Source of the DNA: Amoebophrya sp. A120
Taxonomy: Eukaryota > Protista > Dinoflagellata
Assembly: GCA_905178155.1 (NCBI GenBank)
Contig: CAJINV010000004.1
Coordinates: 9,355,360 to 9,419,359 of the forward strand
Direction: 5' to 3'
Length of the DNA: 64,000 bases
The position numbers were made by a program, and so were the translations under genes. A model generated the notes under the pieces. The model worked only from the letters and a program-made list of their open reading frames with translations. It was not told the DNA's origin and did no database searches. Of this stretch, positions 9,201 through 61,993 are shown one piece after another; the first letter of the stretch is position 1, and each line of letters starts with the position of its first letter.

Positions 9201-12200
9201 TAACCAGTCCTCTCGGTCACAGTCGTGGTTGAAGCGAGTCTTGAAGGGACCACCTGGAGGTACTAGTGTTAAAAGCCCCCGCGGCGGCCAGCTCCAGCAC
9301 GCACAGCAGGAGGGGGAGGCGATGGAGGTGGTTCCGCGACACCCGAATCCGATCCTGCAGCACCAGTACCACATTCCGCCGTACGCGATGCTCTTTCACG
9401 GCAAGATGCAAATGGCACGGCGTCAGGCGAAAAGGGAACAAGTCAAGTCACCCCTTTTGGTGGACACCACGAAGAATCTGGATGAAATGCATGAAAAAGC
9501 GACTGGAATGAAAATTCAAGAAACTTCTACCAGAGACGAGGACCAATCTCCCGGTTGGCGACAGCGGTTGGCAAATAAGTTCGATGGTAGGAAGCCGACT
9601 GAAGCAGACGCTGCTCGTCGCGCAGATCCAAATCACAAATACAGCATGACTGTTGCTAATCGGGAATTTGTTTTCGGAAAGGACGGGCACGGATTTAAGC
9701 CGAAGTCCCAAGACTCCGAGGGAGGTTCGGCAGGAGAAAGAAGAACACGGATCCCGCGGTCGCGCGTAGACCCGGAGGGGTTGAAGTCGCAGATAACCGA
9801 CGCAAGCAACAAAGCCAGCCGCTTGGAGGAAGAAGCAGAGGCAGACCCGATCGAGATCGAGCGCAGCGAGGAAGAAGCGGAAGGAGAAGACGAGGGTCAG
9901 AATGTGAAGTGGCAAAAAGACCGCAAGTCCGGGAAGTGGATACCCGCACTATCAAATGTAAAAATGTCTGGGTCTGGAAGATTGCAACTTGTCGCGCTGT
10001 TTTTGGATTCCACAAAAATTAGTATTGCATGACCAGCAAGTAGAGGGGTGCTCTGTGTGCTACACGGACAGGGCATTTCTCATGCGAAAGGTGCATTAGG
10101 AAGCCCTCTAAAAATATGCGATGCTAGGTCATGCATTAGAGGCATCATGGGTCATGAGAAATATGCATGACAAATCTTGCATTCTTCCAGACCCAGACAT
10201 TTTTGCATTTGATGCGCATTACCAGGTGACATCTTCCCGCAGGAAGACCTGGATTCCAACACGTTCGCAGACGGCTCGCAGCGCGAATTTCGAGGCTTCT
10301 CGCTGGGTTCCACCTCGCGGAACTCGAAGGAGGGAGTTGTTGTCACGTTGGCCAAGTCCGGCCCCGTGGGAAGTGTACATTTAGTGACGTCGGATACTAG
10401 TTTAGACCCAAGGAGGGACAGCCAGGGCGAAGTTGTAGCCGAAGGGACGACCGGAAAAAATGCTTCTTCGTCTCTCCGCGGTAGTGCGGCGGAACAAGCT
10501 GGACTTTTGCAGGACGTGATGCCTCAGAAAAACACCGCGATACGGTTCACGAACCAGTACAGCGAAAACGGTGACGATGGAATTGTAGACGAAGAAGACG
10601 AGGAAAACAATGAAAATTCCGCCCAAACTGCAATCGAGAATCAACTTGTTCCGGACACAAGCGCATTTGAAGATGAGAATCAAGACGACGATACCCCCGC
10701 AAACGCCCCGCGAGGGAGAACCAGCGCACTAGGAGACGAAGTAGTAAAACGCAGTTCCCGCTGGAAGGAAGCGAGCACAAAAAGACCCACAATTCCGGAC
10801 CCCGCGGCGGATGAGCTTCGTCGTGGCAGTGCCGCGGATAAAGATCGCCCTCCTGGTGCGCCAACGGGCGGTGACCGATTGAGCAACAGCAGGAAGTCTT
10901 CCGTTTCTGAGACGCGCAACTCAATGCGCCGGGAAGAGATCAAGCAGGGCATCCAGAACGTGCTCCGCGCCAGCTCGAAGGGGGGCGACGCGAAAGCGTT
11001 GTTTCGGGATTTGCGATCCAGCTACATCTACAAGGGCGGTAACGATGTCGAGGAAAAGGTGATGAATTCGGAATACGAGTTTCAGCCAGAAGACGAAGCG
11101 AGCCAACAGAGCGGAGGTGCATCAAGTAACGGTCTACTTGAGAACCGTACAACTATGCAACCCGCCAGTGGAAAAAGCAAAGTGAAGTCGAAAGGTCTGT
11201 CTCCTGAATCTTCTTCCGCGCAGGAGTTCGCTTCTCACCCGCCGGTCGTGATCCGTGCGACCCGAGCGTCTTCTCTTCGCGACAACTTCCTCTCCTCCGA
11301 ACTCGAAACCAGACCGGACAGCGTGAAAACTTCCCTTCACGAAGAACATTTCCACTGGTTCGTGGGGAATCAGGAACGGAAAAAACAAAAGTCGCCCTAC
11401 GCGTATCATTATGCATTGCAAAAGTATCGTACTAGTGGTAGTATGAATTGCGTCACAAATTCTACATCTACTCTCAAGTACAAAAGTGCATTACAATTTG
11501 TCATGCTACTTCGGGTAGAAAGTTGGGCTTGGGTTTGTAATGTATGACTGCAATCATTACGTACAAGTATGGTATTTTTGCAGTGCATCTCCACCCCCAG
11601 ACGAAGAAGATGCACCAGTACGACGAGTTTTACCGGCATTATTCACAGAAAAAAACCCATCCACATCCAATTTGTCATGCAAAACCCGTATCAAATCATG
11701 TGTTTGTCATGCAAAAAACGGATGTGGATGAGTTTTTTTCTGTGCATACTCATAGTGGCGGTCACATCCTCCACCAGGAAGCGGGGTATTATTACCACAA
11801 GAACGTGGGCGATTCTGGGGTGCTTTTTTCCCCTCGGCGCGGGAGGTCGCCACCGCTATCAAATGTAGAAATGTCTGGGTCTGGAAACTTGTGATGCTGG
11901 GTGGCGTCTCATGATGAGGCCACAAATGCTGGCTCAACATGACAAGTTTCTGAGCTTCTAGGTGTTGCCTATTCTGCATGGCAAACTGCGTTTCTGCATC
12001 ACAGAAAAATGGAGTTCTTGGGTAACGTGCATGACAGGTTTGAGAGTCATGCCAGACAAGCATGACAAACATGCATTCTTCCACCAGACCCAGACATTTT
12101 TGCATTTGATAACCGCCGAAAAGCGACAACTCGGTTCTGAGTAAGGACAACTGGTCTCGGGCGCACGAAACCTTCTACGACGGGGGAAAGGAGCATCAGA

Positions 12201-14104
12201 ACCAACCCTGGAACAAAAGCACGAACGTGTACGGGTCGCTGCACAAGTTTTCCCGGGGGAAAAACAGTCCAAAGACTTTCGCACCGGACTACGTTGTGGC
12301 GAAAGTGGAAAAGAATCTGGAAGAGGAACGGGAGACGGCTATGTTGAGGGAGCAAATGAAGAGCATGATGCTGAAATCTACTTCGGGTAAGGATGATATA
12401 AACGAAGCCGGCTTTCTCGGTAGGGATTCTGCTGCGAAAAGTACAACAGAAGGTGCACTGGGGAGTGTCGGAAATGATGTTCAACATAATGCTGACGGCA
12501 ATGTTGAATTTGAAAAACAGAGGACGGCAAAAGGAACAAAAGGGAACGCAGCCACAACGAAAGCCGTCAACATCAAAGCTCCTTCAAACAAGACTCCGAT
12601 CATATCCCCTTTGAACGACAAAAACTTTACCTTCATCCCGCCGCAACGAACTGAAAAAGACAACCCAGTGCTGGAAAACCCGCCGAGGCTAACGAAACGG
12701 AACGTGAAAACGGGTATTGGCTTCACCGGCGGTATATGGATCGCAAAAATGTCTGGGTCTGGAAGGATGCGAACGCGTGATGCGCATTTCGCAACACGGA
12801 CAGATCTCTCATGCATAGGCAGCAAAAGGTGCCCACTTCCTGTCACCAGAATGGGGGATTTGTCATGCGGATTAAGCAATGCAGAAGCTTCTCGAAATCT
12901 GTGATGCTAGGGCTTCCATGACAGACATTTGGTGTCATGCAAAAACAGCATGACAAAAATCTGCATTCTTCCAGACCCAGACATTTTTACATTTGATACG
13001 GTATCGATATTCACCATTCGCCCGCTTCCAGCAAACGAACCGCGTCACCCCCGGACAAGGAAAAAGTCGTCAGCGCGTCGCCGCCGCACACGTTTTCCGG
13101 GCTTCCGGTGCTGAGGGCAAAGAAGAAAAAGCCGCAGCTGCAGGCACGAAGCAGTATGAAATTTCAGGACTTTGACCACAATTTGCGGAAGCAGGTGAGT
13201 ACCCCTTTGACCGATGAGAAGTTAAGACGGATTGCTGCCTCTTTACCGACGACTCCAATCAACAAACCGAAACTGAAACGCGGCAAGAGCCCTGCTCGCC
13301 CTGTCGCCGTGCAGACCGACTACTCCATGTCGCCGCGGTCCGTGATGATGCGCACGCAGTGGGAGAATTTGGGCGGCATGGACCTGCCCCCGGAGAAAGT
13401 GCTCCCGTTTGATAGAACCGCGTCCATGTTTATCGGCGCAAGGATGATGGAAGCGATGAAACATTACAACGCTGGTGGAGAAGATGGCTCAAGTAGACCG
13501 ACAGAAATCTACACGTCCCAGAGGTTTCTGAAAGGCGCGGCGGGGCCGTCGCCAACGCACATCGCACCGGCGGCCTTCGGGAGGATGAGTCAGAAGCCGC
13601 TGGAGGGGAGGAAGATTATTGAGAGGAGCGAAAATGACGAAGTAGAGAAGGTGCAGGAGTTGGCGAGGATTACGATGCTGGAAAAGGCTCTGCTAGAGAA
13701 GGGGGAGAAGGATAGAGAAGCCGCAAGACTGACCAGCCCATTGTCGTCGGGGCTGCAGCAGCAGCCGACCTCGTTCGCCGACCAAGTCCGCAAGGATAAA
13801 AACGCTGGAGGAGAGCTGCAGGAAAACGAGAAGGCAAAAAAGCCGCCGAAAATCAAGACGGTCTTAGCCCCTTCACATGGCAGAACCTCTGGGGTTAGCG
13901 CGCTGGACGATTTCCTCTCCGACACGAGCGAACGGAGTTTCGGGAAGAAAAGGACCCCCAGGAAGAAACACGTGAAAGCGCCGGCGCACGGCCGGCCGAC
14001 CGGCGTAGACCCCTTTGCGGTATTGGCGGGGGTACCCTCGTCCGGTGGGGGTGGGGAGGGGGAGGCGGCAGAGCATGAGGCCAACCCGTCTCCTGGGCGG
14101 CAAG
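294..14104 (+). CDS. Giant (>3,800 aa in window) charged, low-complexity and coiled-coil protein of unknown function; 5'-partial; may end in exon 15838-16509
   Basis: ORFs 202, 3685, 4581, 6629, 6970, 10348, 11544, 12227 and 13108 join in frame after removing one conventional intron and 9 TIR elements each with one DR copy. Exons ~299-3545, 3732-4520, 4787-6220, 6376-6410, 6696-6837, 6993-9949, 10220-11409, 11595-11639, 11754-11856, 12117-12734, 13004-14104. E/K/Q-rich coiled-coil-like segments; no recognisable domain. Confidence 0.8.
3546..3731 (+). other. Conventional spliceosomal intron (GT-AG; in-frame alternative GC-AG 3541-3711)
   Basis: AG|GTAAG at 3546 and CTACAG| at 3731 join the flanking ORFs in frame. 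AT-rich, with an in-frame stop. Confidence 0.7.
4521..4781. mobile_element. Introner, family A (TCTGGGTCTGGAA TIR), DR GCGAA
   Basis: TATGAACTGCAAATATGTCTGGGTCTGGAA...TTCCAGACCCAGACACTTTTGCACTTGATA; GCGAA at 4516-4520 and 4782-4786. Excision gives ..PVA-K-EVVRL.. Confidence 0.93.
6221..6370. mobile_element. Introner, family B (150 bp), DR AGCAT; opposite orientation to 6838 and 59003
   Basis: TATGAAATGCAAAAGCATCGTACTAGTA...TACGAGTACGATAGTTTTGCACAGGATA. Frame restored (..GAS-I-FYPPR..). Confidence 0.92.
6411..6690. mobile_element. Introner, family C, DR TGAGA
   Basis: TATCCTGAGTAAAAACGTACCCACACCAGAGT...ACTCTGGTGTGGGTACGTTTTTACTCAGGACA, a near-perfect 32-bp TIR. Frame restored (..QHE-K-FVRK..). 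Confidence 0.93.
6838..6987. mobile_element. Introner, family B (150 bp), DR GCGAA
   Basis: TATCCTGTGCAAAAGTATCGTACTCGTA...TACTAGTACGATGCTTTTGCATTGCATA. Frame restored (..SRA-K-TDSQ..). Confidence 0.93.
9950..10214. mobile_element. Introner, family A, DR CGCAC/CGCAT
   Basis: TATCAAATGTAAAAATGTCTGGGTCTGGAAG...CTTCCAGACCCAGACATTTTTGCATTTGATG. Removing 270 nt joins ORF 6970 to ORF 10348. Confidence 0.92.
11410..11589. mobile_element. Introner, family B-like (diverged), degenerate DR ATCAT/TCCAC
   Basis: TATGCATTGCAAAAGTATCGTACTAGT...ACAAGTATGGTATTTTTGCAGTGCATC. Removing the element plus 5 nt gives ..YAYH-PQTKKM.. in frame. Confidence 0.8.
11640..11748. mobile_element. Introner, family D (109 bp), DR GGCAT/CTCAT
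   Basis: TATTCACAGAAAAAAACCCATCCACATCC...GGATGTGGATGAGTTTTTTTCTGTGCATA. The 114-nt removal is frame-neutral. Confidence 0.85.
11857..12111. mobile_element. Introner, family A2, DR ACCGC
   Basis: Family A TIRs; interior nearly the same as 31041 and 49594. Frame restored into ORF 12227. Confidence 0.93.
12735..12998. mobile_element. Introner, family A variant, DR CGGTA
   Basis: TATGGATCGCAAAAATGTCTGGGTCTGGAAG...CTTCCAGACCCAGACATTTTTACATTTGATA. Frame restored into ORF 13108. Confidence 0.92.
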
Positions 14105-14209
14105 GTATACTTGCTTTCTCCTGTAGTGTATTCACAAAAATGCTGTTTCAAAATAAATCTCGTATCAAAATAAATACAGTGATCCAAATTTGTAATAGCT
14201 CTTTTGTGA

Positions 14210-15601: not shown

Positions 15602-15701
15602 NNNNNNNNNNNNNNNNNNNNNNNNNNNNNNNNNNNNNNNNNNNNNNNNNNNNNNNNNNNNNNNNNNNNNNNNNNNNNNNNNNNNNNNNNNNNNNNNNNN
15701 N
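15602..15701. other. Assembly gap (100 N)
   Basis: Run of 100 N. Confidence 1.
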
Positions 15702-20121: not shown

Positions 20122-22225
20122 ATGAGCCTCGCGGCCGGCGGATCATCCGCATCTTCCACCGCGGTTGCCGCGGTGCCAGCCGCAGCCGGAGGTGCGGCGC
20201 TCTTGTATAACAGCAGCAGCGGCCCAGGAACTACTACATCAAGTTCTTCACCACCATCAAATAGTACATCGCCTGGCACCAGCGGAGGTGGTGGTAGCAG
20301 ACCGTCTTCATCGCCGCCGTCAACATCATCTTCCAGCAGCAATAGCAGCTCTAGCAGTAATACTCTTAAAAGCAACTTCACCGCCACAACGGCCTGGAAC
20401 TTTCTTCCCGGCGCGGCGCACGCCGTCTATGGCGTTCTCAAATGTTACATTCTCAACTGTTACATGATTTGCCATGCAAAATTCGAACCAGAATCGACGC
20501 GATCAAGCTGCTTCGCATGGCAAATTCTCGAAGTGCCAAATAGGCTAAGAATCTGTGCCAAATCTGTCATGCAAAAGGCGCAATCTTTCCCCTTTTAGTT
20601 TTCCCATGCTTGCATCACAAACTCATGTAACAGTTGAGAATGTAACAGTTGAGAACGCCATACCGTCACGTCCATCCTTGTCGGATACCCGTTTGACACG
20701 GTATATGGGAGTGTCAGGATTGAAATCGTCAAAGTTGAGATAGTTTGTGATGCATAAAATGCAGCCCACAAAGTGCCTGTCTTGCAGAATAGGCAAGTGA
20801 GGCAGATTGTAAGCCTGTTGAGGGGTAGAAACTGAACAGCTAAAGTAGCATGACAAAAGGCGTCCTCTTTACCCAAACAGCATGACAAACTGGATTTCGG
20901 TTCTCCCTAAATTTGTGATGCGCCACTTGGAAACTGGGTTACGACTTTCATCCATTTTATGCATTGCAGATTATTTCAACTTTGACGATTTCAATCCTGA
21001 CACACCCATACGGTAAAAACCCGGCTGCAGACCGGGATGTACCACTTGTCGGCTGGCAGCTACAGCCCGGCCAGTTACAGAAGGTATGAAATGCCAGACA
21101 TGCATCACAAATCGGGTTTTCTTCTAGGTGATTCACCATGACAAATTCCAATTCTCAACTTTAGCAGAGTTAGTTGTGTAACTGCAATTTATACCAGCAG
21201 TGCGATGCTTTTCCTTTTTCAATGCATATACCACATCACCTTACAAAACAGTTTCTTCCGTGCCATTGGGCAGAGTTTTCAGCAAGAAGGCCTCTTCTTC
21301 CTCTACCGCGGGTGCGGGGTGCCCATGAGCTCTTTGTTACTGAAACGGCCCTTAGAGTTCTTCGTCTACGAGCGATTGAACGAAACGCAAAACCCCGGGC
21401 ACTACTTCCAAAACGGCGCCTACGCGGCCACCGCGGGGTGCTTGATCGGCTGCCCGTTTAACATTGTGAAGATTCGTGTGCAGAACGCGGCGAAAAAAAC
21501 TGTATTCTTGTCGACGTTTTTCATTTTCCCTTGGCGTAATGGAGGCGAATATGCTATACCACAACTCAATCTCTATTTCGATTGTCTTGTACCAAAAGCG
21601 TCACTTCTGCAAACGCAATGTATACAAATTCCATCTTCAGGTGCGCGACGCCGTCCGTGAAGTGTACCGCGAGGCCCCGTACGGCACCGGCTTCTTCCGC
21701 GGTTTACCGCTCCAGCTTGGCTTCAGCGTTCCATCGGCAAGCATCTACTTGGGTTTGTACGGAAAATTTCGCGAGGCTTTGTTAGTGGAAAACGACGGGC
21801 TGGTTTTGTCGAAGGGGACCGCGGGCGGGATCGCCGGAATAGCGTCCTCCGTGATTATGTGGAGCATACTCATGCCGGTGGACACGCTCAGGACAAAAGT
21901 GCAAGCGGGCGGACTACCGATAGTCGCAGCGGCTGCAAGTAGGGGAACAGCCAGTGGAGGGACCAGTGCTAGTACTGCAAGCAGCGCTGGCTCCGGCTCC
22001 GCAGCGACAACTGCATCAACAGGAGGTGGAGCGACCTCGGCGACCAGGCCTGCAATAGGCATCCTCCAAGCGGCAAAATCCATCTACGAGCAGCGTGGGG
22101 CCCGCGGATTTTGGTCTGGGCTGTTGCCAATGTACTTGCGAGCATTCGCGATTACTGCTCCTGCGATGTTTGCGTATGAGACCGCAAGAGATTGGGTCAA
22201 TACAGCAGGAGGTGGAAGAACATGA
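20122..22225 (+). CDS. Mitochondrial carrier family (SLC25) protein, ~414 aa
   Basis: Exons 20122-20427, 20668-20703, 21016-21083, 21252-21501, 21641-22225. Three carrier signatures (PFDTVKTRLQ, PFNIVKIRVQ, PVDTLRTKVQ), plus EGLFFLYRG, GFFRG and GARGFWSG. Confidence 0.92.
20428..20662. mobile_element. Introner, family E (40-bp TIR), DR CCGTC
   Basis: TATGGCGTTCTCAAATGTTACATTCTCAACTGTTACATGA and its reverse complement (one mismatch). Excision gives GAAHAV-TSILVGYPFDTV. Confidence 0.95.
20704..21010. mobile_element. Introner, family F, DR CGGTA; opposite orientation to 30670 and 33463
   Basis: TATGGGAGTGTCAGGATTGAAATCGTCAAAGTTGA...TCAACTTTGACGATTTCAATCCTGACACACCCATA. Excision rebuilds PFDTV-KTRLQ. 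Confidence 0.95.
21084..21251 (+). other. GT-AG intron (alternative in-frame acceptor at 21197) containing a candidate decayed introner at 21085-21193
   Basis: AG|GTATGAAATGC...AAAACAG|TTTC gives YRS-FFRAIGQSFQQEG. Confidence 0.7.
21502..21640 (+). other. GT-AG intron
   Basis: ACT|GTATTC...CTTCAG|GTG joins NAAKKT to VRDAVREVYRE in frame. Confidence 0.8.
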
Positions 22226-22369
22226 AAGCATTCGATGAGTGGGAGAAGTTGCGCCTATCTTATTTATCTCTATGTCATTGTCATTGAGAATTTCTTTGAA
22301 TACTAAGTGAGCGACATTAAAGATTCGGCATTGCCGTTTGTGTGATTTCTGACGTAACTACGTGGCCAA

Positions 22370-23720: not shown

Positions 23721-24525
23721 GAAGCTCTTTTCAGAAGCAAAAACGAAGACGAATCCAACGGGGCCACGCACCTACCACGGCGTCGCGTGTTGCTTGGCGC
23801 TTCTGGCTATGTTTCGGAAGTATGGCTTGAAACCCAATTCAACGCAGGGCCATTAGCATTGTTCTTTGTCTCTTTTACGTCTGGTTGTGTCATGTGGTTT
23901 CCAGGATCCAGGCCGAGCTTTGATGTCCGACGCTTTTTTGCTGAAAGAATATCTGTCAATGTGAAAGAATGCCCGTTATGCGAATGACTCGGCAGCATTG
24001 CCTGCGTGCAAACAGGATCAAGTATGTAAGTTCGAGCTCAAACAAGCAGCTCACCTTACGCACAATGACCGCGGTCTTGTCTTCTGACCTATGCCTATCG
24101 CAGTCCCCTTGTTATATTTTTTTGTCGCCCAATGCACCACTTGCTTCGCTGGGCACGGGCTGCAGGGTCTTTGCATCAGTGCTCTTACATTCATGGACCG
24201 AATGTTCACACACCAGAGACAGAACGTAGAGGTCTTTCGTTGAAATATGAATATTTGTTTCTTTTTATTTCTGCCAAATAATCAAGAAAGTAACATCAAT
24301 TGCATGATATGAAGCCTCTTCATGTAAGTAGTTTTTTCACAAGATTTGACCTAGAGCTAGACTCCTGTATGGGATTAAAAAAGTACAGCCTTTATGATTT
24401 TCGAAACGGCTCTCAGAGTTCCAAATCGGAACCTGTTCTTACCAACATGTTCTTATTCGCGGCTCCGAGCCATACACACGTACCCACTCTTATTCTACGC
24501 CTAAAGTTACGCTAGTAAGTAGATC

Positions 24526-27500
24526 ATGATGAACAACAACGCAAATTTCCATCCAGACGGCCGCGTCCAGCAGACGATCCACTTGCTGGATGAGATTCTG
24601 CAGAAGCTGCAAACGACCGGCAACGCCGCCTCCAAATGCCGCGAGGAGGGGTGGAAGCTGCTCGAGGGAGGGCCAGGCGTACCTATGCCTTTCAGCAAGC
24701 GCAGTTCGGACTTGCGGCAGAAGAGCCTCTACGCGATACACAAGCCGGGCGAAACGTACTTTTACGCTTTATTGAAATCATTGCTGCACTCCATCGCGGA
24801 GGATCTCGTCGGGACTGGGGCGAAAAAACGAAAATCTTTTCGCGGGAACGGATGTGTTGCTCTGGCCACGCTCGTGACGAACTTTCTGCAGGCGAAGAGT
24901 TGTGAGGATTTGGACGGCTTTGTCCAGAACAAGCTGTATACCCACGCCGGGAGTTCAAGTTCTTCCTCTTCATCGTCTTCAAAGTCCTCGCAACATCCTT
25001 TTGTCAAAGAAACGCTCGGCTCCTCGGAGAATGTTCGGGAGCTGTTTTACATCATTGGAGAAAGAGTGCTCCGGACGTTCAGTCAAACGAGATTCGGCGA
25101 CCCGCTATCGCCAATACCTTTGACCGATTACACCGGAAGTTTGATCCTGGTCATCAACCGGCTGACGCCATTTATCTTTTTCGTTGACCCCGAATGCGTC
25201 CCTGCGGAAGACATCATCGGGATCTTGAACTACTTTCCCCTAGCCGGGCCATCCGACAAGCACTTCACGAATGTCGCAGCAAATTTGATCAAGTATTTCC
25301 GGGGGGATTTTCCAGCGAGCTCAGTGCGCGGACTGATTGTCGATGACAATTTTCGCAAGTACTCGGAAGCCTTTTACCTGCTGTTGCTACGCTACCCGTA
25401 CCACTTTCGGTTCTTCAGGCGAATAGCGCCTGCGACAGCGGCGCGACAGAACGTCGGTCCGGGTGGTCAGCCAAACCTCCCCGGCCCGGGCTACTTGCGA
25501 CAAGCAGAGAACCAGAGGCAAGAAGAGAATCTCAATCTTCAGCAAAATCGGGATTTGGGCCGACTGGAGCTTGTCAGCCCGTTGGAGTATGTGCAGAAGC
25601 TTCTCCCGACGGCGAGCTCGCTCCTGAGCGGCCCCCGGGCAAAATTACTGATGCTGTGCTGCACTTTAGTTGCGTTGGAATCGCATCAGCGGCACGAGCG
25701 GAGAAGGTCGAAGAACTTTGACAAGGTTGTGAGCTTACGGAAAATGCTCTTGGCAGAGGTAAACCAGAACGAAGACCAGGAGTTGCTCGTGGGGCTGATG
25801 TTTCTCCACTGGCTGTACCCAAACCTCGTGCCGAAGGACCACAGTGGTGGGCCAGACCAGCGTCCCATGGACGCAATCCAACTCGCGGGTGAAAGTAGCA
25901 GGTCAACCTACGGAGGAGCAGCTGCTGGTAATCTTGGGAGAGGTTCGTCGATGAATTTCAATCAGCCAAGTTCTGGCAGCTCTGCCTGGATGCGGCCCAC
26001 CCCGGCTTCTGCATCGTCTTCTTCCGCAAACTTCCAGACGGGAACGTCCAGAGGAACTGTGGCAGGCCAAAACCAAAATGCCGGCGCTGCTTCCTCCTCT
26101 TCATTCAGCTCCGACCGAGTCGACGACCTAGAAGATCTCCCCATCGGATCCTCCCTTCCGCCAGACTTACGAACGAAGCCGCACATTTTGAAACTGCTCC
26201 CCATGGACATCGTGGAGAGGCTGCTGGTTTACGACGAGGATTTTTTCACCACAGAGCTCGCAGAGGATTTCTTATTCGGGCGGCAATTGCAATTCAGAAC
26301 CGTCGTGTCCGCAGCGGCAAACAGCGGATCATCTTCTGGGAACAATGGTAGCTCGTCGTCCCAGAATTATCAGAGCCAAAGATTTCTCCCACTAGCGAAC
26401 TCCACGTCGCAGAATAAGCTGCTGGGAAAGATGCTGGAAAATCCGCCCATCGGGCAGCTGAGCAAGAGTAGTCTGCGTAACGCGTCGAAATCGGGGGGCA
26501 GCGGGAAGAAACAAGCCTTGGACGACGATTACTTTGGACCGACGCCGGGAGCTACGCCAGGGACGATGCGCGATAATGGACAAGACGAAGACCAGCAGGC
26601 TGTCCCGCAAGAAGACCCAATTATCCGCGAGCGCAGGCGCCGCCAGTTCACCAGCGTTGAAAGCTACTACTACCAGCTGGAAGAAGTCTTGCCCAAGCCG
26701 ACACAAGGTGCTGGGAAAGCTGCAGGTCGCGGCGGTCAAGGGGCCTCATCGAGTGCGCAGCAGATGAACTTCCAGCAGAGCATGGTCGTTGATAATGACG
26801 TTGCGAGGACCTCCGCTTCTGGCGCAGCTATTGGTGACGACGCACCGGATCTGTGGTGGTCCACAGAAGCGGTATTTGACCGGCTAGTGGAAATCGTGAG
26901 GCTGCCGTTGCTCTCGACATCAAGTGGAAATAGTGGTGGAAGTAGTAGTTCTAGTTCCAGACCTCCCCGCTCCGGCTCGTCTAAAATGCGTCACTTCCTC
27001 CGTGACCGAGCGGACTCTATTCTTCGCTTGGCGTTGGTCAACAAAGACCGACTGTCAGTTGCAGCTTCAACTACGTCGAGGAACAATAATAACAGTGGCT
27101 CCGAGCAGATATCATCGAAGAACGGTGTTGAGGAGGATGCAGCTTGGCAGAAAAATACCTTGACGGTTGCGAGATTTCTACTACTCGCCCGCTACTTCCT
27201 CGACGACCAAGTTTTGCTTGCGAAAGTCCGTGCTTTTTACCACAATCCGCTGGTGAAATTCTCCGACGAGCATTTGCTCTTCGCCGAGACGTTCTTCTTC
27301 GCTGCTACGGACAACAACCACCGGTTCTACGCGCAGATGGACAGTAGTAGCTCGAGGAACTATAGTGTGATGAGGGGCAACGTGAATTATGAACAACAAC
27401 ATGGTAGTACCAATAAATCATCCACCGCCCGGCTCTCCATCCTCGACTCTCACGTTCTTTTCGACTACATCCAAGCGGCGATCGTGCATCGCGATCGGGT

Positions 27501-30500
27501 CTCACCGCTGATCAGCCGACTCTACGCCTTGCTTGTCGCGAAACGAGTGCGCGCGAACGCCGCGTCGCAGTTCGATCTTAACGCATTGGAACTCGGGTTT
27601 GGGGAGTGGTGTGCTGGAGGCCATGCAGCGGGGGCATTGCTTTTGATAAAGCAGCCAACGCACCAGTCAAAGAGGACTTTACTGTACAACACGCATTTCC
27701 TCGCTCATGCGGCGTTGAAACTACTCGTCAAGCAACCAGCAAACTTGAGGCAAGCGAGCCCTGCCACTTTTCTACTGGAGTGGCTAACTGCGTTTTGCAC
27801 CCAGGACAACTGCAATTCGAATGACGCAACCCCAGCGGCAAGGGCCCCTGCGAGAGCTTTTGGCTCGTCTGCAGCAATAAGCGCTGCTCTCATCCTGAAA
27901 CTCATTCCCTACGAGGAAGGGGGAGAAGATGATGACGAAGATGCCATGAGCTTGGACGGGGGAGACGATGATTTATTTGAAAACAACAGCCGCCGCAGCG
28001 TGAACAACAACCCTCTACTCGCCAGCTCCAGCTCTGTCCGAAGCAACATGTCACAAATGCAGCCACGGGAAAGGAATTTGCTGATGTCGCAATTAAAAAG
28101 CAGCATCAAGCAGGTGCGAGGTGGAACAGCACAGGCAGCTGCGCTAGGAAGTAGAAACAGACGGTCTTCTTCTGGCGCCGCTCACCTTGGTGGGTCCGGG
28201 CGTTTTGCCGGCGGGGGCATGCACAATCCACCCAACTTCGATCAAGTCAGGATCCAGCTTTTGTCTGAGCTTCTTCAAGTCCCAGCGACCACTAGTACGC
28301 ACACCAACGCCGCAGGATCTTCCACTAGCGCACTTTCAGGGAATCTCAACGATTTCCAGACGCAGACGGCTGGCGGGATGTTATTGCAGTGGTTGCAGAC
28401 GACCATGCAAAAGATCTTAACCGTGAAACGCGACGCAGTATCGAATCGGGGACCGCCGCCTGGGGTTCTTTCCTCGCAGTTTGGTGGGAGGAGCAATGCT
28501 AGAAATAACAACAATAACGATAATTTTCAGATGCACGACCTCGACCTGCTGGACGATCATCTCGCAATCATGGACGGGGATGTCGATATGATGAGCCAAA
28601 ATGTAGTTCCGCCGCACAACTACAACATCCCGGGAGCGGCTTCTGCTCGAAGTCAACACAACTCGTCCCAGAACCAGAACAACCGGAATGAAAACCAAAA
28701 CCAGGAAATAGATAGCGCACGACCACCAGTAGACTTTGTCTACGTCCCAGCTGGGCAATTCACCACCCGATTCCTCACCCTCTGCGAGTTCATCCTCACT
28801 ATCGGTTGCTGTTTTGACACCTTCACAGCGAGGATGGAAGAGCAGGAACAGCAGGAGTGGCTGGTTGTCATCGAAGTCGCAATCAATCGGTTGATAAAAC
28901 CGATCCTAACCGAACCGTTCGCGAAAGGGATAATGACAGAAGAAGGGGACGAGACCAATTACCAGGGTAGCTTCCAGTTTCACAACGAGCTGCGAGTGAA
29001 AGCGGTTGGGAGATTGTTGCCGCTGTTATTGCAGATGCGGAACTCTTCTTCATCCTCGCGCAGCGGTATAAAAATCTCTTCGTCTGAAAACCTCGCCGCA
29101 ACTCTCGCCAACCTGGAGGACGACGTCGCAGACGCCCTTCCCTGGCCGATAACCGCCGCTGAGACGGCGGACGAGGAGGAGAAGTCGGGGCAGTTGTGGT
29201 TGGATAGGAACGACTGCACGCCCTGGGCGGCGTTGACCTGTCTAGTTCTCCACGGGTCTGGGCCCGGAAGAATACGGTGTCTCGCCAGCATGCTGATTGT
29301 GGCCGATAAGTTCCACCAGTGGTCCCGGTGGTACCAAGTCTGCGATGCGATCAGGAATGCTGTCATTGGTCCTCCGGTTGGACCTGGATCAGGGCCAATA
29401 AAATCGAATGATAGCGACGCGGCTTGTAGTTTGCTGGACCTCCCGCCTTCAGCGACCACTGCAGAAGCGGTGCGGCTAGGAAGCGCCTTTGTGCACAGGC
29501 AGCAGGCGGAGCTAAATGAAGCAGGGTCTACATCCACTTCTGCGTTCGGAGGTAGAAATAATATCAGAAGCGCAGCATCCTGGCTCACGGCTCAACACGT
29601 AATCGAGCTCTACAGCTACTGGCGGGCGATGATGCCCGACAAGCCGTTTCCGTTTGAGAAGCTAAGGGCGACGGGTTTCATTCCAGATTTCTACATTGCA
29701 AAATACCTATGTTTGTACAACGACCAGAGCATCGTTGGGTACGGTAAGACACTTTTTGACATGTGCAGCGGAACAAATGATCAAGATACGGGGCTCCTGC
29801 AAGGAGATGAAGACGTCACAACACGCCTGCGAAATCGGGAAAACCTTGCTGGCCCAGCGGTGTGCTTGCTGCAGGAAGATAATGATGGAAATCAAGATCA
29901 AAAAGCGCCAGCCGCGTCCGCGGGAGCAGCTGCAATCCCCACTTCGCTTCTGAACCCGGGTTGGCACGTGTTAAGCCCAGCAGAAATGGAGGAATTGCAA
30001 TTGCACGAAACACAAGCAAAACCACACAACCCAAGTACGAGTACCCACAAAAGAAAAAGAATCACAACTTTCCAGGAATCCTTCGGCCGCTACGTGGCCG
30101 CGGCACTCACGCTTCTCGGCGGAACAGGCGGCCTCGCGAGGCAACATCTTGCACACTTTGCGACCAAAATTACCAAAAAGCGGCTCGACGACTTTTTCGC
30201 AAAACTGGCAGATTGCAGTAAATCAAGTTTCGTGAAAAACGTGCTCGCCCCTTTCTCGACGCTGGCGTGTCGGCCGGTAGTTTTTGCCTGGTATTTCCGC
30301 TTAAAGCTCTTCTACCACCGAGACAGCGAGGTAGCCCAGATGCTGCCGCCGGTGGATTGTGTTTTTGTCAACACAGCAACTGCGGAGGAAATAAGCAGTG
30401 CAACTTCTACCGGCGGCGGAGGAGGTGCAGAAGCAGCAGCAGCAGTAGGAGCAGCGAAAAGTAGAAAAAGCTGGTCTGCGTCCAAGAACAAGCGATTCTC

Positions 30501-39500: not shown

Positions 39501-41693
39501 GAACACAGAAAGCTCGAGAAATACGTGTTTGATGCGAGAAAGGCGAAGCAGCTCCCGGTAAAAGCGACTAAAGCAGACTGCAAGGAAACCGCGCTTTCCC
39601 ACCGCGTCACCGCGTTGGAGAAAATCTTTTCCTGGTGCATCGAGCTGTGTCACGAGCTGCCTCCACACCCAAATGGCATAGACTGGAAGGACGAAAAACG
39701 GGTCATGCCCATCACCAAGTCGGCGGTACAGGCGGAGACGCACAAGCAGTGCAAGCAGTGGGCGACGTGGTGGCCGAGCCTGACCGCTTACTCGGACATT
39801 CACTACCAGTACCGTGAAGCGGACCTGCTCACGGGGTGGTCCGACACCTTTCAAATGGTGGGCAGCGGGGTCTCCGTGCCGCGCAGCATCATCGTGGTGG
39901 CGGAAAGCGGGAAGGCGTACAAGCTGCTGGTCAAGGGCGACGACGATGCCCGACAAGACTGCATTTTCGAGCAGATTTTCATGCATTTGAAGTCCGTCGC
40001 CGGAAGAGCCGCGCCGGGGGGCGGGGGAAAAACCAACAAAAACGTGTTCGAGCACCTGGTCACCTACAAAGTGATACCGCTCGCACCGCAACAGGCCGTG
40101 ATAGAGTGGGTCGACCCAACAATGCCCGTCGGAAGTTGGCTGCAGGTATTGCTTCAGTTTATTGTCAGAAGTTGTTAGTTTAGTTGAGCAACACGTATTT
40201 TTATTTCAATTGCAGCTCATGGCCATGGATATTTCATAAAGATGAGCATGGAACACCAAAAAGTTTTCGTCCAAATTTTTCAACAAAGAAACCCTCGATT
40301 CCGAAGAAGAAAATGCATTCGAACAACAGGACGCTGGCGGCGGGCATGCGCGCTATAATCCACAGGATTGGGCAAATGCCCGATGTCGCGCGGTCATGAA
40401 CGAAGGCCACTTTACGGGTTTTGTGCAAGACCCGGCCTTGCGAGACAAGAAAATCGCGGCGTTCAGGAAGTGTTGCGAGAACTTCCAGCCCGCGCTATTG
40501 TGAGGAAAAATCCCCCCTCCCCATATCGAAAAGATACGTCGCCGAAAATTTGCAATGCTGATTTGCGACCACAAATCATCTCTGTCTTGCAAGAAGGCAA
40601 GTCCACAGGCTCCGCCGCATTCTGCAGGCGGTTTGTGATGCTGTTGGGCCTACAGCGCAGACGTTTCTCATGCTAAGAGCCTAGCCCAAGACCTCTCTAC
40701 TCAGGCTTAGTATGGACCTGCAGTCCTCTCCAGCAAGACAAATCCGATTTGTGTACGCAAATCCAGCATCACAGACTTCGTTTTGATGTGGGGTGGGGGC
40801 TTTTTTCACTTTGATACGCGCTGAAGTACTTCTTTCTCGAGAAATTTGGGCACAACGCGGTCAAACACCACGAGGCGCTGTATCAAGTGTAAAAATGTCT
40901 GGGTCTGGAAGATTCTGAGATTTGTCATGCATGTTTTACATGACCTAGGATGTCTGTAATGCGCGACCTGACATCACAGATTTTTAGAGTGCTTGCTGAT
41001 GCCTACTCCGCATGACAAACGCCCTCCCCGCGTAGCGCAACCTAGACTCCTCTTGCTGGTCATGCAATACAGATTTTTTTAGATGAGTCCAAAGCTAGCG
41101 TCACAAGTTCCATCCTCCCAGACCCAGACATTTTTACAGTTGATACGCTGACGGCGTATGCGAAATCGTTGGCGGTGACCTCGATGGTCGGGTATGTTCT
41201 GGGCGTGGGCGACCGGCACGTGAACAACATCATGATGAATTTGAAAACCGGCGAGATCCTCCACATCGACTTTGGCATGGTCTTTGACTTTGCGAAAAAT
41301 CTCCCCGTTCCCGAGGAGGTGCCCTTCCGGATGACGCGCGACTTGGTGCACCCGCTCGGGTGGCAGGGGTTGCAGAACGGGGTCTTTCGGAAAGGATGTG
41401 AGTACGCGTTCGAACTGCTGCAGCAGCACGAGGAATTGCTGTTAAACCTGTGCGAAGTCTTTCTCTACGACCCCATCACGCGGTGGAACGCGCGCCAGGA
41501 GTGCGAAACGGCGGCCGGCGGGGAGCAGGCACTGCAGAGCATACGGAGCAAGTTGAGCTTGACCGACTGTCACAGCAAGTCCGGGCTGAGCCAGTTCAAG
41601 GACGTGCCGGCTTTCCTGGACTACTTGTTGACGAAAGCAACGGACCCAGTGAACCAGGCAGTGATGTTTGCCGGGTGGAGCTCGTGGTGTTAG
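24526..41693 (+). CDS. ATM: ATM/Tel1-like PI3K-related protein kinase, ~5,115 aa
   Basis: Exons 24526-30669, 30981-31040, 31302-33462, 33782-37555, 37705-40145, 40330-40495, 40822-40880, 41151-41693 (15,348 nt, in frame). Motifs LVKGDDDARQD, TYKVIPL, IEWV, HARYNPQDW..CENFQPALKYFFLEKF (ATM-type), VGYVLGVGDRHVNNI, HIDFG, PEEVPFRMTRD, and FATC ATDPVNQAVMFAGWSSWC. Confidence 0.88.
30670..30975. mobile_element. Introner, family F, DR AGACT/AGACC
   Basis: TATGGAAGTGTCAGAATCGAAATTGACAAAATCGAAAAATTTG...CAAATTTTTCGATTTTGTCGATTTCGATTCTGACGCTTCCATA. Frame restored. Confidence 0.93.
31041..31296. mobile_element. Introner, family A2, DR CCTTG/TCTTG
   Basis: Family A TIRs. Excision gives SFQSL-PAKLKD. 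Confidence 0.92.
33463..33776. mobile_element. Introner, family F, DR TGCGG
   Basis: TATGGGAGTGTCAGGATTGAAATC...GATTTCGATTCTGACACTTTCATA; interior similar to 30670. Excision gives TTA-G-CFEPL. Confidence 0.93.
37556..37699. mobile_element. Introner, family D-like, DR CAAGA
   Basis: TATCCGCAAAAAACAACCATCC...GGATGGTTGTTTTTTTGTGGATA. Excision gives EWQYK-T-GKTQDG. Confidence 0.92.
40146..40329 (+). other. GT-AG intron in the kinase domain
   Basis: CAG|GTATTG...CAACAG|GAC gives GSWLQ-DAGGGHARY. Confidence 0.85.
40496..40816. mobile_element. Introner, family G, DR CGCGC
   Basis: TATTGTGAGGAAAAATCCCCCTCCCCATATC...GATGTGGGGTGGGGGCTTTTTTCACTTTGATA. Excision gives NFQPA-L-KYFFLEKF. Confidence 0.92.
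40881..41145. mobile_element. Introner, family A, DR CGCTG; opposite orientation to 4521, 9950 and 61298
   Basis: Family A TIRs; interior matches the reverse complement of 61298. Excision gives HHEAL-TAYAKSLAVTSM. Confidence 0.94.

Positions 41694-44260: not shown

Positions 44261-44289
<29 letters not shown>
44261..44289 (+). repeat. Internal poly(A) tract (29 A) between ORF1 and ORF2
   Basis: Direct reading. Confidence 0.95.
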
Positions 44290-44294
<5 letters not shown>

Positions 44295-57426: not shown

Positions 57427-57771
57427 AGAGCAGAAAATGTTTTAAATGGCAAATACGGCTCATCAACATCATGATTGCGTTGCTGAGGATCTTAAGGCGT
57501 TGGATATCTATCACTGTCATCTGTTGGTTTTATTATTATTGACGCATTTTAATTTTTTTTTTCTCTTCTGTTGAGCACTTGCGCCTTCGATCCGAATTTT
57601 TTGCACACCATCTTCGGAGCAACTCCCGCCGCATCTAGATAGGCGCTAGCGCGCGAAGTTTTGCAAAAAGTGGGTCGCGCTGTCTCCGGGGGGCGTGCCC
57701 TGGTCTCACTATAATAAACTTAGCAGGGAAAGGATCCAATGCGCCGCATTCAAAAGGTTGGGACGAGCTTT

Positions 57772-57855
57772 GCCTTGCTTAGCTCGCCAAGGCGTAACGC
57801 TTGACCTGTGGAACTTCATTCAACGAGCGGAGTGGTTCGAGCCCACTCAAGCGTG
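57772..57855 (+). ncRNA. tRNA-like / Pol III element (possible tRNA-derived SINE head); not a canonical tRNA
   Basis: A-box-like TAGCTCGCCAAGG (57780); B-box GGTTCGAGCCC in the T-arm AGTGG-TTCGAGC-CCACT; 7-bp stem ACGCTTG/CAAGCGT; no clean anticodon arm. Confidence 0.45.
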
Positions 57856-58545
57856 ATTACTGCGCAATCAGTATGGGTCGGAGGTCAGAGCGTTAGTATT
57901 GCGAGCCTTAAGCGTGATCGCGTGGCCGATCCTTGACCTCCAGGCCAAAGAATAGGACAAACAAGTCCCGGCTCCTGTGTGCGTGCTGGTAGTTCCGCCC
58001 TGTTCCTCGGAATGTGCGAAACATGCCAGCCCCCGAATGAAGCAAGGCCCAATGATCCCGAGCGAGGGCTTTCCACACTTGAATGACGAAAAAACCTGGC
58101 CTCAGTCAACGACGTTACCACTAGGGTATCAGGGCAGGCTATTCCTGCCGCGCGTTGGAGGAGGGAGCTGTCCCGAGCCCCGCTCGAACTAATGCTAATC
58201 ATCATTGTTCTTTTGTTCGGTGATTTTTCATCTTCTGGAAAACCAACAAAGCGATTGAGATTCGATGACGACGAGAGCAGGCTTGATGTAGAGTGTGGTC
58301 TTGTGAATGTTGTTGCACGTGAACCTTCGGAGAACTTGGATTTTTGGTTTTCGTCGTGGTCCTTGTCGTGCAGAGATAGCAGAGCTGCATCCTTGTACTA
58401 GTTGAAGTTGTCACGGTTTGATTCACTCACGACTGAGAGAAGCCAGCACTCAAGTAGTGTCGATGCTCCTCTGCTAGGACCAGGACGGCGAGAAGTGATG
58501 TCTGAGTAAGATATTAATCAGACGAATCATCGCCCTTTCTTCAAG

Positions 58546-61500
58546 ATGCCACCACTCAGCTGCTGCCACGACCGAGGGCCGGACTTATCCGAGACCACCT
58601 TCAGGAGCACAGCTCCGTGTAATTCGTCATCTTCGCCCAGCTCTACTAGTTCGTCGAGCAGTGCGAAAGCAAGATATCGACATGGAGAAATGAGGTTTCG
58701 AGCAAGAAGAACCCCCGCCGTTTTAGGTGCAGCAGCCTGTTGGACAACCGCACTCCTTCCCAACATCCAGGAAATCTTGTTTCAGGCAAATTTGAATTTC
58801 CACCAAAATCTTGTCGCCGCAAAGCAGCACAGGAGCACAAGGAAGAGCAGCGAGCACCACCAACAGGGACGAGAAAAGCAAGAGTCTCTCCTCGATGCTG
58901 CGTTAAGCTCCGTGAAGAAGAGCGCAGAAGACCTTCTCCACTGGCGCGGCGAGGGACAAAACTTTCGAGTACACAAAAAAATGATCGTCAAAGTGAAGAA
59001 GCTATCCTGTGCAAAAGTATCGTACTCGTAGTAATTGCAATCATGCATGACAAATTGCCCATCTTAGGCAAATCAGCATTACAAATTGCACTTTTCTCTT
59101 TGAAAAAATTTGTAATGCAATCTATACTAGTACGATACTTTTGTAATGCATAGAAGCGGAAGAGGAGCAAAAAACGGAGTGGTGCAAGAACCGCCGCGGC
59201 TGGTCGAAAATCATCATCCTCTTCCACCTCTGCCGGCAGAGTCTACTCGTCCACCTCGAGTAGTAGTAGAAGTGGCCGATTGCAAGATGGGCATCGTCAA
59301 GATGAACGCCAGCAGCTTCGAAAGATGAACAAGAAACAGAGAAGGAAAGCCGCGAAAGGAGCTGCTGCAGCAGCAGCAGCAACAGCTGCTGCACAGATGA
59401 GAGGTCTTCAGAAGAAGACCTTGAGAAGCGAAAAACTACTAGTACGCGAAGACGAGAAAGATGGTAGTGGGAGTGAAGAGGAGATTCCGGATGAAGAAGT
59501 AGACAAAATGATGAACGAGAATAGCGAAACATTGCATCCGGACGAGCCCGTGGGGCTGGACGCCACGACAAGCACAACGAGCACTTCCACGACAAGCACA
59601 AGCACGACTTCTACTACGACGACGAAAGCCGGAACGTCTACAGGAAGTTTTTCTGGCGCGTCAATCCGGATGCCGGGCCCTGCCCCTGCGCCAGCTCCGA
59701 CCTCCTCGTCTTTGGTGCAGCACGATTGGGACGATGGGGACAACTCGACCGAAGCACCGCAAAGGACCACTGCAGGAGCAGTACAAATACAAGACGCGGA
59801 TGACACAAACTCGACAACGATGTCGCCCCCAAAGGATGCTGCTGGACAACATCAAGGAAGCTCCTCGTCAGCCTACCTCACAACCGCACAAAATAACGTC
59901 TTCCACAACCTGACCAACCGGAGCAGCGAGCAGATTGGCGAGTCCATCAGCACAACATCAAGTTCTACTACTTCCACAACCGCTGCGACAACGACGACAT
60001 TAGCTGGCGGCGATTTTTACACGCCTGAGGCGATGGTGCTGGCAAGGAATAATAAGGCGGGTGACGATGAAGACGATGAAATAAATCGGACACAATCCTA
60101 CCTGCAGAAGCAAGACGTGGTGATTCGCCGGAGGATTCCGGTGAGTCAATACGGGCAGAACAACCTCCAAGGGGCTCCTGTGGCGGGTGGACAGCAAGTG
60201 CTGCAAGCAGGTGCAGGGCCAAGCTATCCGCAGCCGGCGCTAGTAGTGCAAGGAGGTAATGGCTACGCTGCGCAGCCACCGCCGGCGCTATACGAAGATC
60301 CGCAGTTTCTCGCAACGGCCTCAGACGGGCAGCAGTTGGTGCAGTCGAACCTCCTCCAGGGAACAGTGAATGGCATGGTCAAAAATGATGTTGTCCCGCA
60401 GCAAAATAATCAAGTCCCGCAAGAACAGCAGCAGCTACAATCCCGTCAGCGTGTTTTCGCCACGGTGAGTACTACCGGAACGCCAAATGGACCGCAGATT
60501 CAAGTCCCGCAAATGTACAACAACCCAACGACAACTAAGCAGTTTGCAATCAACCAAGACGGATTGGAAGATGAGGAACAGCTTGACGACTGGCCAGCAA
60601 CTACGAACAGCTACGAAGAGGATGGGGAGTACGAGGACAGCTACGATAGCGGGGAGGACGATTACGATTCCGGTGAAGACGCAGCTTATCTAGAAGAGCA
60701 AGGCGATGACAGCGACGAAGACGATAGCACGAATAGTACCACGACGGGGTTTGTCGACACGAACACGTTTCGGGAAGAATGTACTTGTGTTTTTCTCGAC
60801 TTTTTTCGGAAGTGAAAAATGGCCATGGCGATTAAGAAGTTGTACGGAACTTCCGGTATCGCTTTTCGAAGCGGCCTCACCGAGATGAGAAATAAAAAAT
60901 CGTGCATGATGCGCATGCCATATTACCCATTCTTGATTTGGAATCACAACATACAACAGGTGATGCCGCGACACTGGTGGCCGCCTGGAAAGCTTGTGGG
61001 ATCAAGGACAGTTCGCTGAAAGATTACAAAGCGGGCGAAAACACCAGCGATTTGGTGTGGGAAGTGAAACAAAGTACTGCTACTGTGTTGAAAAAGTCTG
61101 CTCAGATGATTTGCGATTCTGCCAAACCATTTTGACGTGCTCGGAGTCCATTGTGATGCCAAGCACACTTTCCTTCTGCAGCCCTAATATTTCTGAATCC
61201 AAAAGAAAAAACACATTCTTATCAAATACAGCCCACCTCTGCAACACCATCTGCATGTTGGCCTCCGAGATCTGCGCAGACCTCACCGGCCTAGCCGTAT
61301 CAAATGTAAAAATGTCTGGGTCTGGAAGAATGCAACTTGTGATGCTCATGCTGCATTTGGATGTCTAAAACTAAAAAATTTGTGTTGCATGAGCAGCAAA
61401 AGGAATCTAATTTCTGCTACGCGGAGAGGGCATTTGTCATGCAGAATAGGCATCAAGAACCCCTCAAAAAACCTGTGATGCTAGGTCATGCATCACAGAG

Positions 61501-61993
61501 ACCACGGCTCATGCAAATCGTGCATCACAAGTCTCAGAACCTTCCAGACCCAGACATTTTTACACTTGAGAAGCCGCCCGGCGGTACGACGAAGTTACCT
61601 GCTCGCGTTACTGGAACCGGGTGTCGGAGGAATCCATAGTGGTCACGGAAACCAACGACTATCGAATAAAAGAGTGTTAACTTTAACGGTTTTCACAGAT
61701 GGCAGTCATGCATTACAAATTTTGCCTTCCGTGCATGGTACGCAATACAAATTTGCGCGCCTCTTCAGATGCATCCCTGCATCACAAATTCCGTTAACGT
61801 TAGCACTTTTTCTTGTGATAGCGACGCGTCGTCCAAAGCCATGTTCTTCGGGTGGAGACTGCAGCTGCTGTTCACCTTTGTGTTCCTGCTGTTTTCGGTC
61901 AGCGGCTTCGGGGATCATGATCATGGAGGGTTCCTCGGTACTACAGCAGCCTCGTCGGTCGGAAGGAGCAGGCAAGTGCAGGGGGTGTGGTGA
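58546..61993 (+). CDS. Putative secreted/membrane mucin-like protein with a Cys-containing C-terminal domain and hydrophobic tail (~836 aa; start may be 58690)
   Basis: Exons 58546-59002, 59158-60780, 60960-61073, 61232-61297, 61577-61659, 61826-61993 are in frame (3 introners; GT-AG introns 60781-60959 and 61074-61231). Thr/Ser runs; tail LQLLFTFVFLLFSV. Confidence 0.75.
59003..59152. mobile_element. Introner, family B (150 bp), DR GAAGC
   Basis: TATCCTGTGCAAAAGTATCGTACTCGTAGTAAT...TATACTAGTACGATACTTTTGTAATGCATA. Frame restored. Confidence 0.93.
61298..61571. mobile_element. Introner, family A, DR AGCCG
   Basis: Family A TIRs (right end ...TTGAGA). Excision gives TGLA-A-RRYDEV. Confidence 0.92.
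61660..61820. mobile_element. Introner, family J, DR ACGAC/GCGAC
   Basis: TATCGAATAAAAGAGTGTTAACTTTAACGG...CCGTTAACGTTAGCACTTTTTCTTGTGATA. Excision gives ETND-ASSKAM. Confidence 0.88.

Follow-up and report, generated by a model that had tools for sequence, protein, structure and literature searches.

Mismatched direct repeats place the RNA junctions of Amoebophrya sp. A120 introner elements inside the 5-nt repeat

Introner elements and comparable introns

Coding sequence in a 64,000-nucleotide (nt) stretch of Amoebophrya sp. A120 (assembly GCA_905178155.1, contig CAJINV010000004.1, positions 9,355,360 to 9,419,359; here called the window and numbered from its first base) is broken by short TAT...ATA inserts whose ends are inverted repeats and which stand between two copies of a 5-nt direct repeat (DR). 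These inserts are the introner elements (IEs) already published for this organism (Farhat 2021; PMC7789003). In that paper, the IEs of A120 are described with inverted repeats of 8-20 nt, made up of TAT, about seven less conserved bases and at least three A, and with DRs of 3-5 nt lying over the exon/intron border. They form a hairpin and fall into 1,954 strain-specific families. The legend of Figure 3 in PMC7789003 states that the position of the intron border "remains unknown", and according to the legend of Figure S23 the distance between the inverted repeats and the called splice sites is 1-5 nt. For A120 the paper lists the U2, U4, U5 and U6 RNAs and an almost complete set of spliceosomal proteins, but it did not find U1. 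Here we use DR pairs whose two copies differ to locate the border, and we find that the junction lies inside the 5-nt DR, after position 2, 3 or 4.

Other introns offer partial parallels. Class 12 introners of Polarella glacialis take their splice sites from a 5-nt target site duplication (TSD; NNAGG or NAGGH) (bioRxiv 10.1101/2020.10.14.339549). In the NNAGG frame the donor consists of the last TSD base and the first element base, and the acceptor AG stands at TSD positions 3-4. As with the IEs of A120, these are introns derived from DNA transposons with a 5-nt target duplication, and the NNAGG geometry corresponds to a junction after the fourth repeat base. The Polarella class needs a donor G and an acceptor AG from its TSD, whereas the repeats of A120 lack such a composition. 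Non-canonical introns of Fritillaria borealis have been ascribed to a modified U2 spliceosome (Henriet et al., 2019, as cited) and are a precedent for a relaxed spliceosomal reading; most of them show AG-A(N), i.e., defined ends, unlike the IEs of A120. The nonconventional introns of euglenids (PMC3935182, PMC4770533) belong to another lineage.

The elements in the window are identical in kind to those of PMC7789003: the organism, termini, DRs, hairpin, families and non-canonical ends are the same, and there is no transposase inside. What is added here is that the border is bounded to the interval after DR position 2-4. Since elements, repeats and hairpins are already published for this strain, the bound is an incremental refinement. 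A literature search did not find an analysis of the border by DR mismatches, and supplementary Figures S19-S23 of PMC7789003, available as legends, may bear on the point. Where an intron is flanked by identical repeats its border is hidden, and differences between the two copies serve as natural markers of it.

Identity of the elements

Two annotated proteins tie the window to the strain. P0001 (4277 amino acids, aa) is 100% identical to window exons from the start of the window to about 14.1 kb, and P0002 (836 aa) is 100% identical to window exons across 58546-61993. NCBI and EukProt list both under Amoebophrya sp. A120. We catalogued 24 elements in the whole window, 20 of which lie within 9945-61825 (Table 1). 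They span 92-321 nt, and 13-23 of their 24 terminal bases are complementary. Every element starts with TAT; the right end is ATA in 20 and ACA, ATG, ATC or AGA in the other four. The termini fit the published A120 motif (TAT, seven variable bases, at least three A). The DRs over the exon/intron boundary are 5 nt long, within the published range. Within the window, several families are represented by 2-8 copies, and no transposase is found inside them. Removal from RNA at non-canonical sites, as published for IEs, is also seen here; for 10 of the 24 elements we rely on the sequence alone or on indirect contig evidence of removal.

A scan of the whole window for TAT...ATA pairs with perfect 5-nt flanks returned 20 pairs. 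Fifteen of these have 13-23 of 24 complementary terminal bases, and the remaining five have 4-9, which is the chance level. The DR pairs of the catalogue are perfect in 17 elements and imperfect in seven (13 and seven, respectively, within 9945-61825). An earlier reading made from the sequence alone, the sequence-only reading, had counted seven differing pairs among 23; all seven are present within its range, but the total in 9945-61825 is 20.

The junction lies inside the direct repeat

We define the register k as the number of DR bases kept from the left copy, and we name each site by the first base of its element. The transcript evidence comes from Logan contigs of four runs (X3-X6), taken to be RNA by guess, which were compared with a DNA-like run (X1) at a depth of about 44x. 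The RNA-like contigs lack both the IEs and the GT-AG introns; the DNA-like contigs carry the IEs. Excision at the DNA level was considered and rejected, as the elements are present in DNA-like contigs of single-copy depth. Where letters fit both sides of a joint, they are assigned to the right-hand contig piece. The table of joints, which includes X1, is dominated by cross-joints among repeat copies, and the junctions at 9950 and 11410 were read from the contig pieces.

The introns are longer than the elements by exactly one repeat. All 12 IE introns that could be mapped with P0001 and P0002 have the length of the element plus 5. The joint 49588->49846 skips 257 nt (252+5) in three of the four RNA-like runs, and the joint 50061->50252 skips 190 nt (185+5, 'both' = 4) in all four, which come from two samples.

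Five of the seven mismatched sites show which copy supplies which base. At 9950 the X3 and X6 contigs pick up again at 10215 without any other letter, and the mRNA therefore reads CGCAT, with the T of the right copy at DR position 5. The mRNA of site 50067 likewise has the right-copy G at position 5. At 11410 the left contig piece stops in X3 and X6 at 11406, not at 11409, that is, two bases into the left copy, and P0001 reads AYH, with the Tyr of the left copy and not Phe. The 146 contig letters from 11406 to 12112 equal two small exons once three introns of element length plus 5 are subtracted. Joint removal of 11410-11748 as one intron, the outer flanks of which (ATCAT/CTCAT) match in four of five bases, was rejected, as it would leave 101 and not 146 contig letters. 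Taken together, the evidence at 11410 gives an mRNA of ATCAC, in which positions 1-2 derive from the left copy and position 5 from the right. P0001 reads YRHSGG at 11640, where Arg needs the left-copy G at position 1 and the right copy would give Pro. P0002 reads TETNDASS at 61660; its Asn comes from the left-copy A at position 1, and the right copy would give Ser.

The register is thus at most 4 at three sites (9950, 11410 and 50067) and at least 1 at three sites (11410, 11640 and 61660); 11410 by itself requires at least 2. The junction lies inside the 5-nt DR, after position 2, 3 or 4, and registers 0, 1 and 5 are excluded because positions 1-2 of the mRNA match the left copy and position 5 matches the right. 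The cut thus falls within the duplication, and not at its outer ends or at those of the transposon. The sequence-only reading had predicted for cDNA that positions 1-4 would come from the left copy and position 5 from the right. The part of this that the mismatches can test, positions 1-2 and 5, held at all five testable sites of the seven; at 30670 and 31041 spliced contig cover was not found in the four RNA-like runs. Its narrower proposal, a junction between positions 4 and 5, stands insofar as the junction is inside the DR with the outer registers excluded, but registers 2 and 3 fit equally.

It could be objected that the mismatches reflect faulty assembly, allelic variation or RNA editing and are uninformative on the cut. 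PMC7789003 allows an effect of editing at 2-4% of intron boundaries. However, the DNA-like contigs repeat the mismatched DRs of 9950 and 11410, as well as the left repeat of 11640, with 0 other letters, and the RNA contigs equal one of the two genomic copies exactly, in a consistent direction at five of five sites. We consider this objection very improbable. The agreement of the five sites might instead be coincidental, with the cut specific to an element, a family or a transcript. Both sides are bounded at one site and the other four bound one side each, and contigs may hide minor forms. Against this, all five sites, from at least four element families, fit one interval, and register 0 or 5 is found at no site, though a free choice would often give them. 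A cut without a single register thus appears quite unlikely, and we infer that one register is common to all families.

The coding consequences of the mismatches were checked at the seven sites, with reading frames taken from P0001 and P0002 (9950, 11410, 11640 and 61660) or from the sole consistent open frame (30670, 31041 and 50067). None of the four differences at position 5 changes the amino acid (CTA/TTA Leu, CAT/CAC His, ACT/ACC Thr and CGT/CGG Arg), and the differences at positions 1-2 alter the residue (Tyr/Phe, Arg/Pro, Ser/Phe and Asn/Ser), as the sequence-only reading had said. By a rough estimate the chance of four synonymous differences in four is about 0.1-0.2. In the further copies described below, one position-5 mismatch (L102) alters the residue.

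Repeats of further copies

The ten DR mismatches of the window are distributed 4, 2, 0, 0 and 4 over positions 1-5. The chance that positions 3-4 stay empty is (3/5)^10 = 0.006, which rises to about 0.06 when the empty pair may be any two of the five; the gap was read from the same data, and the mismatches inside sites 11410 and 11640 are not independent. We scanned metagenome contigs with the 16-base core of the commonest terminus and obtained 156 loci (L001-L156), mostly on JACKZZ01... contigs. None of the loci overlaps the window. They hold 98 complete copies of the TATCAAATG family and 18 copies of other window families. The JACKZZ01... contigs are from the same or a very close organism, because the window's other element families are also present on them (at least three).

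After three copies with undefinable ends or repeats (L061, L136 and L139) were left out, 95 copies remained; these were judged from the DNA letters, and splicing evidence is confined to the window. Their DRs are perfect in 80, have one mismatch in 13 and two in 2. The 17 mismatches fall 4, 3, 3, 5 and 2 over positions 1-5 (chi-square p 0.82). The orientation of a locus may differ from that of the gene, and on the opposite strand position p becomes 6-p, which leaves position 3 unaffected. Position-3 mismatches occur in L089:65-330 (CCCCC/CCTCC), L113:287-548 (TTATG/TTGTG) and L150:26-330 (ATCCT/ATTTT), and position-4 mismatches occur in gene orientation, given by a single open strand, in L030:157-430 (AATCC/AATTC) and, with the gene on the minus strand, in L003:700-969 (CGCGC/CCCGC) and L088:600-859 (TGTCT/TCTCT). 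Four more candidates for a difference at position 3 or 4 have an ambiguous gene strand (L003:1017-1282, L070:169-430, L092:67-330 and L043:516-794). In gene orientation, positions 3 and 4 therefore account for at least six of the 17 mismatches. At the 15 mismatched loci a stop codon arises in none of the registers, and stop codons thus do not discriminate among them. Base composition shows no enrichment: A is at position 3 in 24 of the 95 copies, G at position 4 in 33 and G at position 5 in 27. The Polarella-type TSD (NNAGG/NAGGH) is not found in these copies, though the TSD length is 5.

These copies change how the window is read. The claim that mismatches never fall at positions 3-4 holds for the seven pairs of the window but fails among the 95 copies. 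The window's gap at positions 3-4 is a small-sample effect, because the 17 mismatches of the further copies spread over all positions. The sequence-only reading had also held that the final two bases of the intron repeat those at the end of the upstream exon, a rule that breaks down with the mismatches at positions 3-4 in the 95 copies. It had taken uniform per-position mismatch rates as evidence against itself; in the 95 copies of this one family the rates are near uniform.

What makes the cut

None of the 24 elements shows the GT/GC...AG ends of U2-type introns. In register 4 they start with A, C, G or T followed by TAT and end in any four bases, and none combines a G start with an AG end; no register makes the IE introns canonical. 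The hairpins are strong. That of IE 9950 has a folding energy of -131.2 kcal/mol (z -9.7) and a stem running from the first T to the last element base, and that of IE 11640 (z -8.5) has a stem that also begins at the termini. A structure joining both intron ends, as in the hairpin-bounded introns of the euglenid type, is thus present, with stems that start at the termini. IEs 6221 and 6838 belong to one family, are mutually reversed and are both absent from P0001, so removal occurs in both orientations. An inner branch point or pyrimidine tract, which has an orientation, should therefore not be the signal, and we infer that the symmetric termini or the hairpin mark the cut sites. A junction inside the DR constrains any recognition model for introns without fixed end bases.

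The most likely cutter of the IEs is a relaxed spliceosome, one that would tolerate any first and last intron base and might cut one base ahead of the TAT terminus. We give a probability of roughly 0.7 to the reading that the published IEs are removed with exactly 5 extra bases, with the junction after DR position 2-4, by such an any-end-tolerant spliceosome. Several points weigh against it. Intron ends of this kind are unacceptable to a normal spliceosome, AG stands at the 3' end in no register from 2 to 4, and the DRs have neither a G excess at position 5 (27/95) nor AG at positions 3-4. The bound of at least 2 depends on one site and on the habit by which letters are assigned at piece ends, and the 48-nt exon piece is not listed. 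The RNA nature of X3-X6 is guessed. The annotated proteins are transcriptome-based, possibly on the same data, and so are not independent of the contigs. Contigs drop rare variants, and minor alternative registers may escape notice. Junction evidence covers five of the seven mismatched sites, with 30670 and 31041 lacking spliced cover. Finally, PMC7789003 argues that the IE mechanism "should be distinct" from ordinary splicing.

A non-spliceosomal route would have an endonuclease measure from the hairpin base with fixed offsets (3+2, 2+3 or 1+4) and a ligase join the exons. The stem that begins exactly at the termini, with strong z-scores, is consistent with this, as are removal in both orientations and intron ends that vary in every register. 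The distinct mechanism proposed in PMC7789003, and the missing U1 in that paper, point the same way. However, under register 4 the IEs and the conventional GTA...CAG introns share TA at +2 and +3. Elements with decayed ends (...ATC at 11410, ...ATG at 9950) are nevertheless removed as element plus 5. We regard an endonuclease and ligase as improbable.

The model of the sequence-only reading, with a cut that always separates DR positions 4 and 5 and is made by a relaxed spliceosome, is a special case of the explanation preferred here. The TAT would then be +2 to +4 of a GTA-type donor with a free +1. Register 4 (N-TAT...ATA-NNNN) is, on our analysis, the single most likely register, a tentative choice held at somewhat more than one chance in three. 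It is consistent with all five tested sites, and among registers 2 to 4 it alone makes one base of the first intron dinucleotide a conserved one (T). The same geometry occurs in the class 12 introners of Polarella with the 5-nt TSD NNAGG. The six conventional introns in the window all start with GTA and end with CAG (GTAA in one, GTAC in two and GTAT in three), which bears out the GTA(T/C/A) donors described from the sequence, and register 4 would give the IEs TA at +2 and +3, as in these donors. The conventional intron at 21084 even starts with G and TATGAAATGC, an IE terminus. Nevertheless, registers 2 and 3 explain the data equally, the premise that positions 3-4 are free of mismatches fails in the 95 copies, and the repeats show neither the G at position 5 nor the AG at 3-4 that would favour this cut.

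In its strongest form, which we find doubtful, the machine of A120 would cut every introner one base before TAT and four after ATA, ignoring the first base and the terminal AG. Both sites would be found from the symmetric transposon terminus or the hairpin. If so, an insertion in any orientation and at any 5-base target would be born as a working intron.

Elements and conventional introns of the window

Table 1. Introner elements (IE) and conventional introns in the window. Lengths are of the element without the direct repeat (DR); DR copies are given as left/right. P0001 and P0002 introns are lengths in nt.
Feature	Start	End	Strand	Length (nt)	DR	Basis and remarks
Conventional intron, GTAAGA...ACAG	3546	3731	+			P0001 mapping
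IE, outside 9945-61825	4521	4781	+	261	GCGAA, perfect	P0001 intron 266
IE, outside 9945-61825	6221	6370	+	150	AGCAT	Inner part reversed relative to 6838; P0001 intron 155
IE, outside 9945-61825	6411	6690	+	280	TGAGA	Right end ...ACA; P0001 intron 285
IE, outside 9945-61825	6838	6987	+	150	GCGAA	P0001 intron 155
IE, TATCAAATG family	9950	10214	+	265	CGCAC/CGCAT, mismatch at 5	Right end ...ATG; P0001 intron 270 (265+5)
IE, TATGCATTGCAAAAGTATCG family	11410	11589	+	180	ATCAT/TCCAC, mismatches at 1, 2, 5	Right end ...ATC
IE	11640	11748	+	109	GGCAT/CTCAT, mismatches at 1, 2	P0001 intron 114 (109+5)
IE	11857	12111	+	255	ACCGC, perfect	Contig piece resumes at 12112; P0001 intron 260
IE	12735	12998	+	264	CGGTA, perfect	Contig pieces 12112-12729, 12999-14042; P0001 intron 269
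IE	20428	20662	+	235	CCGTC, perfect	Contig piece stops at 20422 in X3, X6
IE	20704	21010	+	307	CGGTA, perfect	
Conventional intron, GTATGA...ACAG	21084	21251	+			Contig pieces
Conventional intron, GTATTC...TCAG	21502	21640	+			Contig pieces 21250-21501, 21641-22328
IE, TATGGRAGTGTCAG family	30670	30975	+	306	AGACT/AGACC, mismatch at 5	Sequence
IE, TATCAAATG family	31041	31296	+	256	CCTTG/TCTTG, mismatch at 1	Sequence
IE	33463	33776	+	314	TGCGG, perfect	Sequence
IE	37556	37699	+	144	CAAGA, perfect	Sequence
Conventional intron, GTATTG...ACAG	40143	40326	+			Joint 40142->40327, GT..AG, X6 only
IE	40496	40816	+	321	CGCGC, perfect	Sequence; inverted ends weaker (15 of 24)
IE	40881	41145	+	265	CGCTG, perfect	Inner part reversed relative to 9950
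IE	49594	49845	+	252	CGGAG, perfect	Joint 49588->49846
IE	50067	50251	+	185	TGCGT/TGCGG, mismatch at 5	RNA-contig joint
IE	53206	53372	+	167	AGAAC, perfect	Sequence
Possible IE, weakest in the catalogue	54780	54871	+	92	ATCGT, perfect	Weak inverted ends (13 of 24)
IE	59003	59152	+	150	GAAGC, perfect	P0002 intron 155 (150+5)
Conventional intron, GTACTT...ACAG	60781	60959	+			P0002 mapping
Conventional intron, GTACTG...ACAG	61074	61231	+			P0002 mapping, unique solution
IE	61298	61571	+	274	AGCCG, perfect	Right end ...AGA; P0002 intron 279 (274+5)
IE	61660	61820	+	161	ACGAC/GCGAC, mismatch at 1	P0002 intron 166 (161+5)

Some elements are closely packed. Mini-exons of about 35 and 142 nt part IEs 6221, 6411 and 6838, and all three elements are removed in P0001. 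Farther along, the 107 contig letters between 20422 and 21250 match the loss of IEs 20428 and 20704 together with a GT-AG intron. That conventional intron (21084-21251) has TATGAAATGC, the terminus of IE 6221, as its bases 2-11, and there is no inverted repeat at its 3' end. It may be a decayed introner turned conventional intron.

Raw RNA reads of a further sample from another study with the same species label (X9) mapped to the window 91 times, all at the element end 9950-9993 and at 95-99% identity. On either side the reads continue into flanks that differ from those in the window (67 and 86 reads). Transcripts of this different sample thus contain a related element end, and the sample is uninformative on the genes of the window.

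Other features of the window

An Rfam search of the window gave no match at gathering scores. A candidate giant gene spans 24523-40142, with open frames of 2112, 739, 1340 and 858 aa linked solely by IEs. RNA-contig cover there is near nil in X3-X5 and a trace in X6. We did not find an annotated protein for it; a search with the exon 31299-33462 returned one weak match, a 559-aa protein (P0003; E 1.2e-4). The segment 22001-24000 just ahead of it has the highest GC in the window (0.618 vs. about 0.52). Its open frames overlap on the two strands, and it is not covered by RNA contigs. An assembly gap of 100 N lies at 15602-15701. In the nearby segment 14219-15537, the DNA-like contig depth is 152, compared with about 44 elsewhere, with seven base differences and one 1-base gap. 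The probable reason is a collapsed repeat or a second, paralogous copy.

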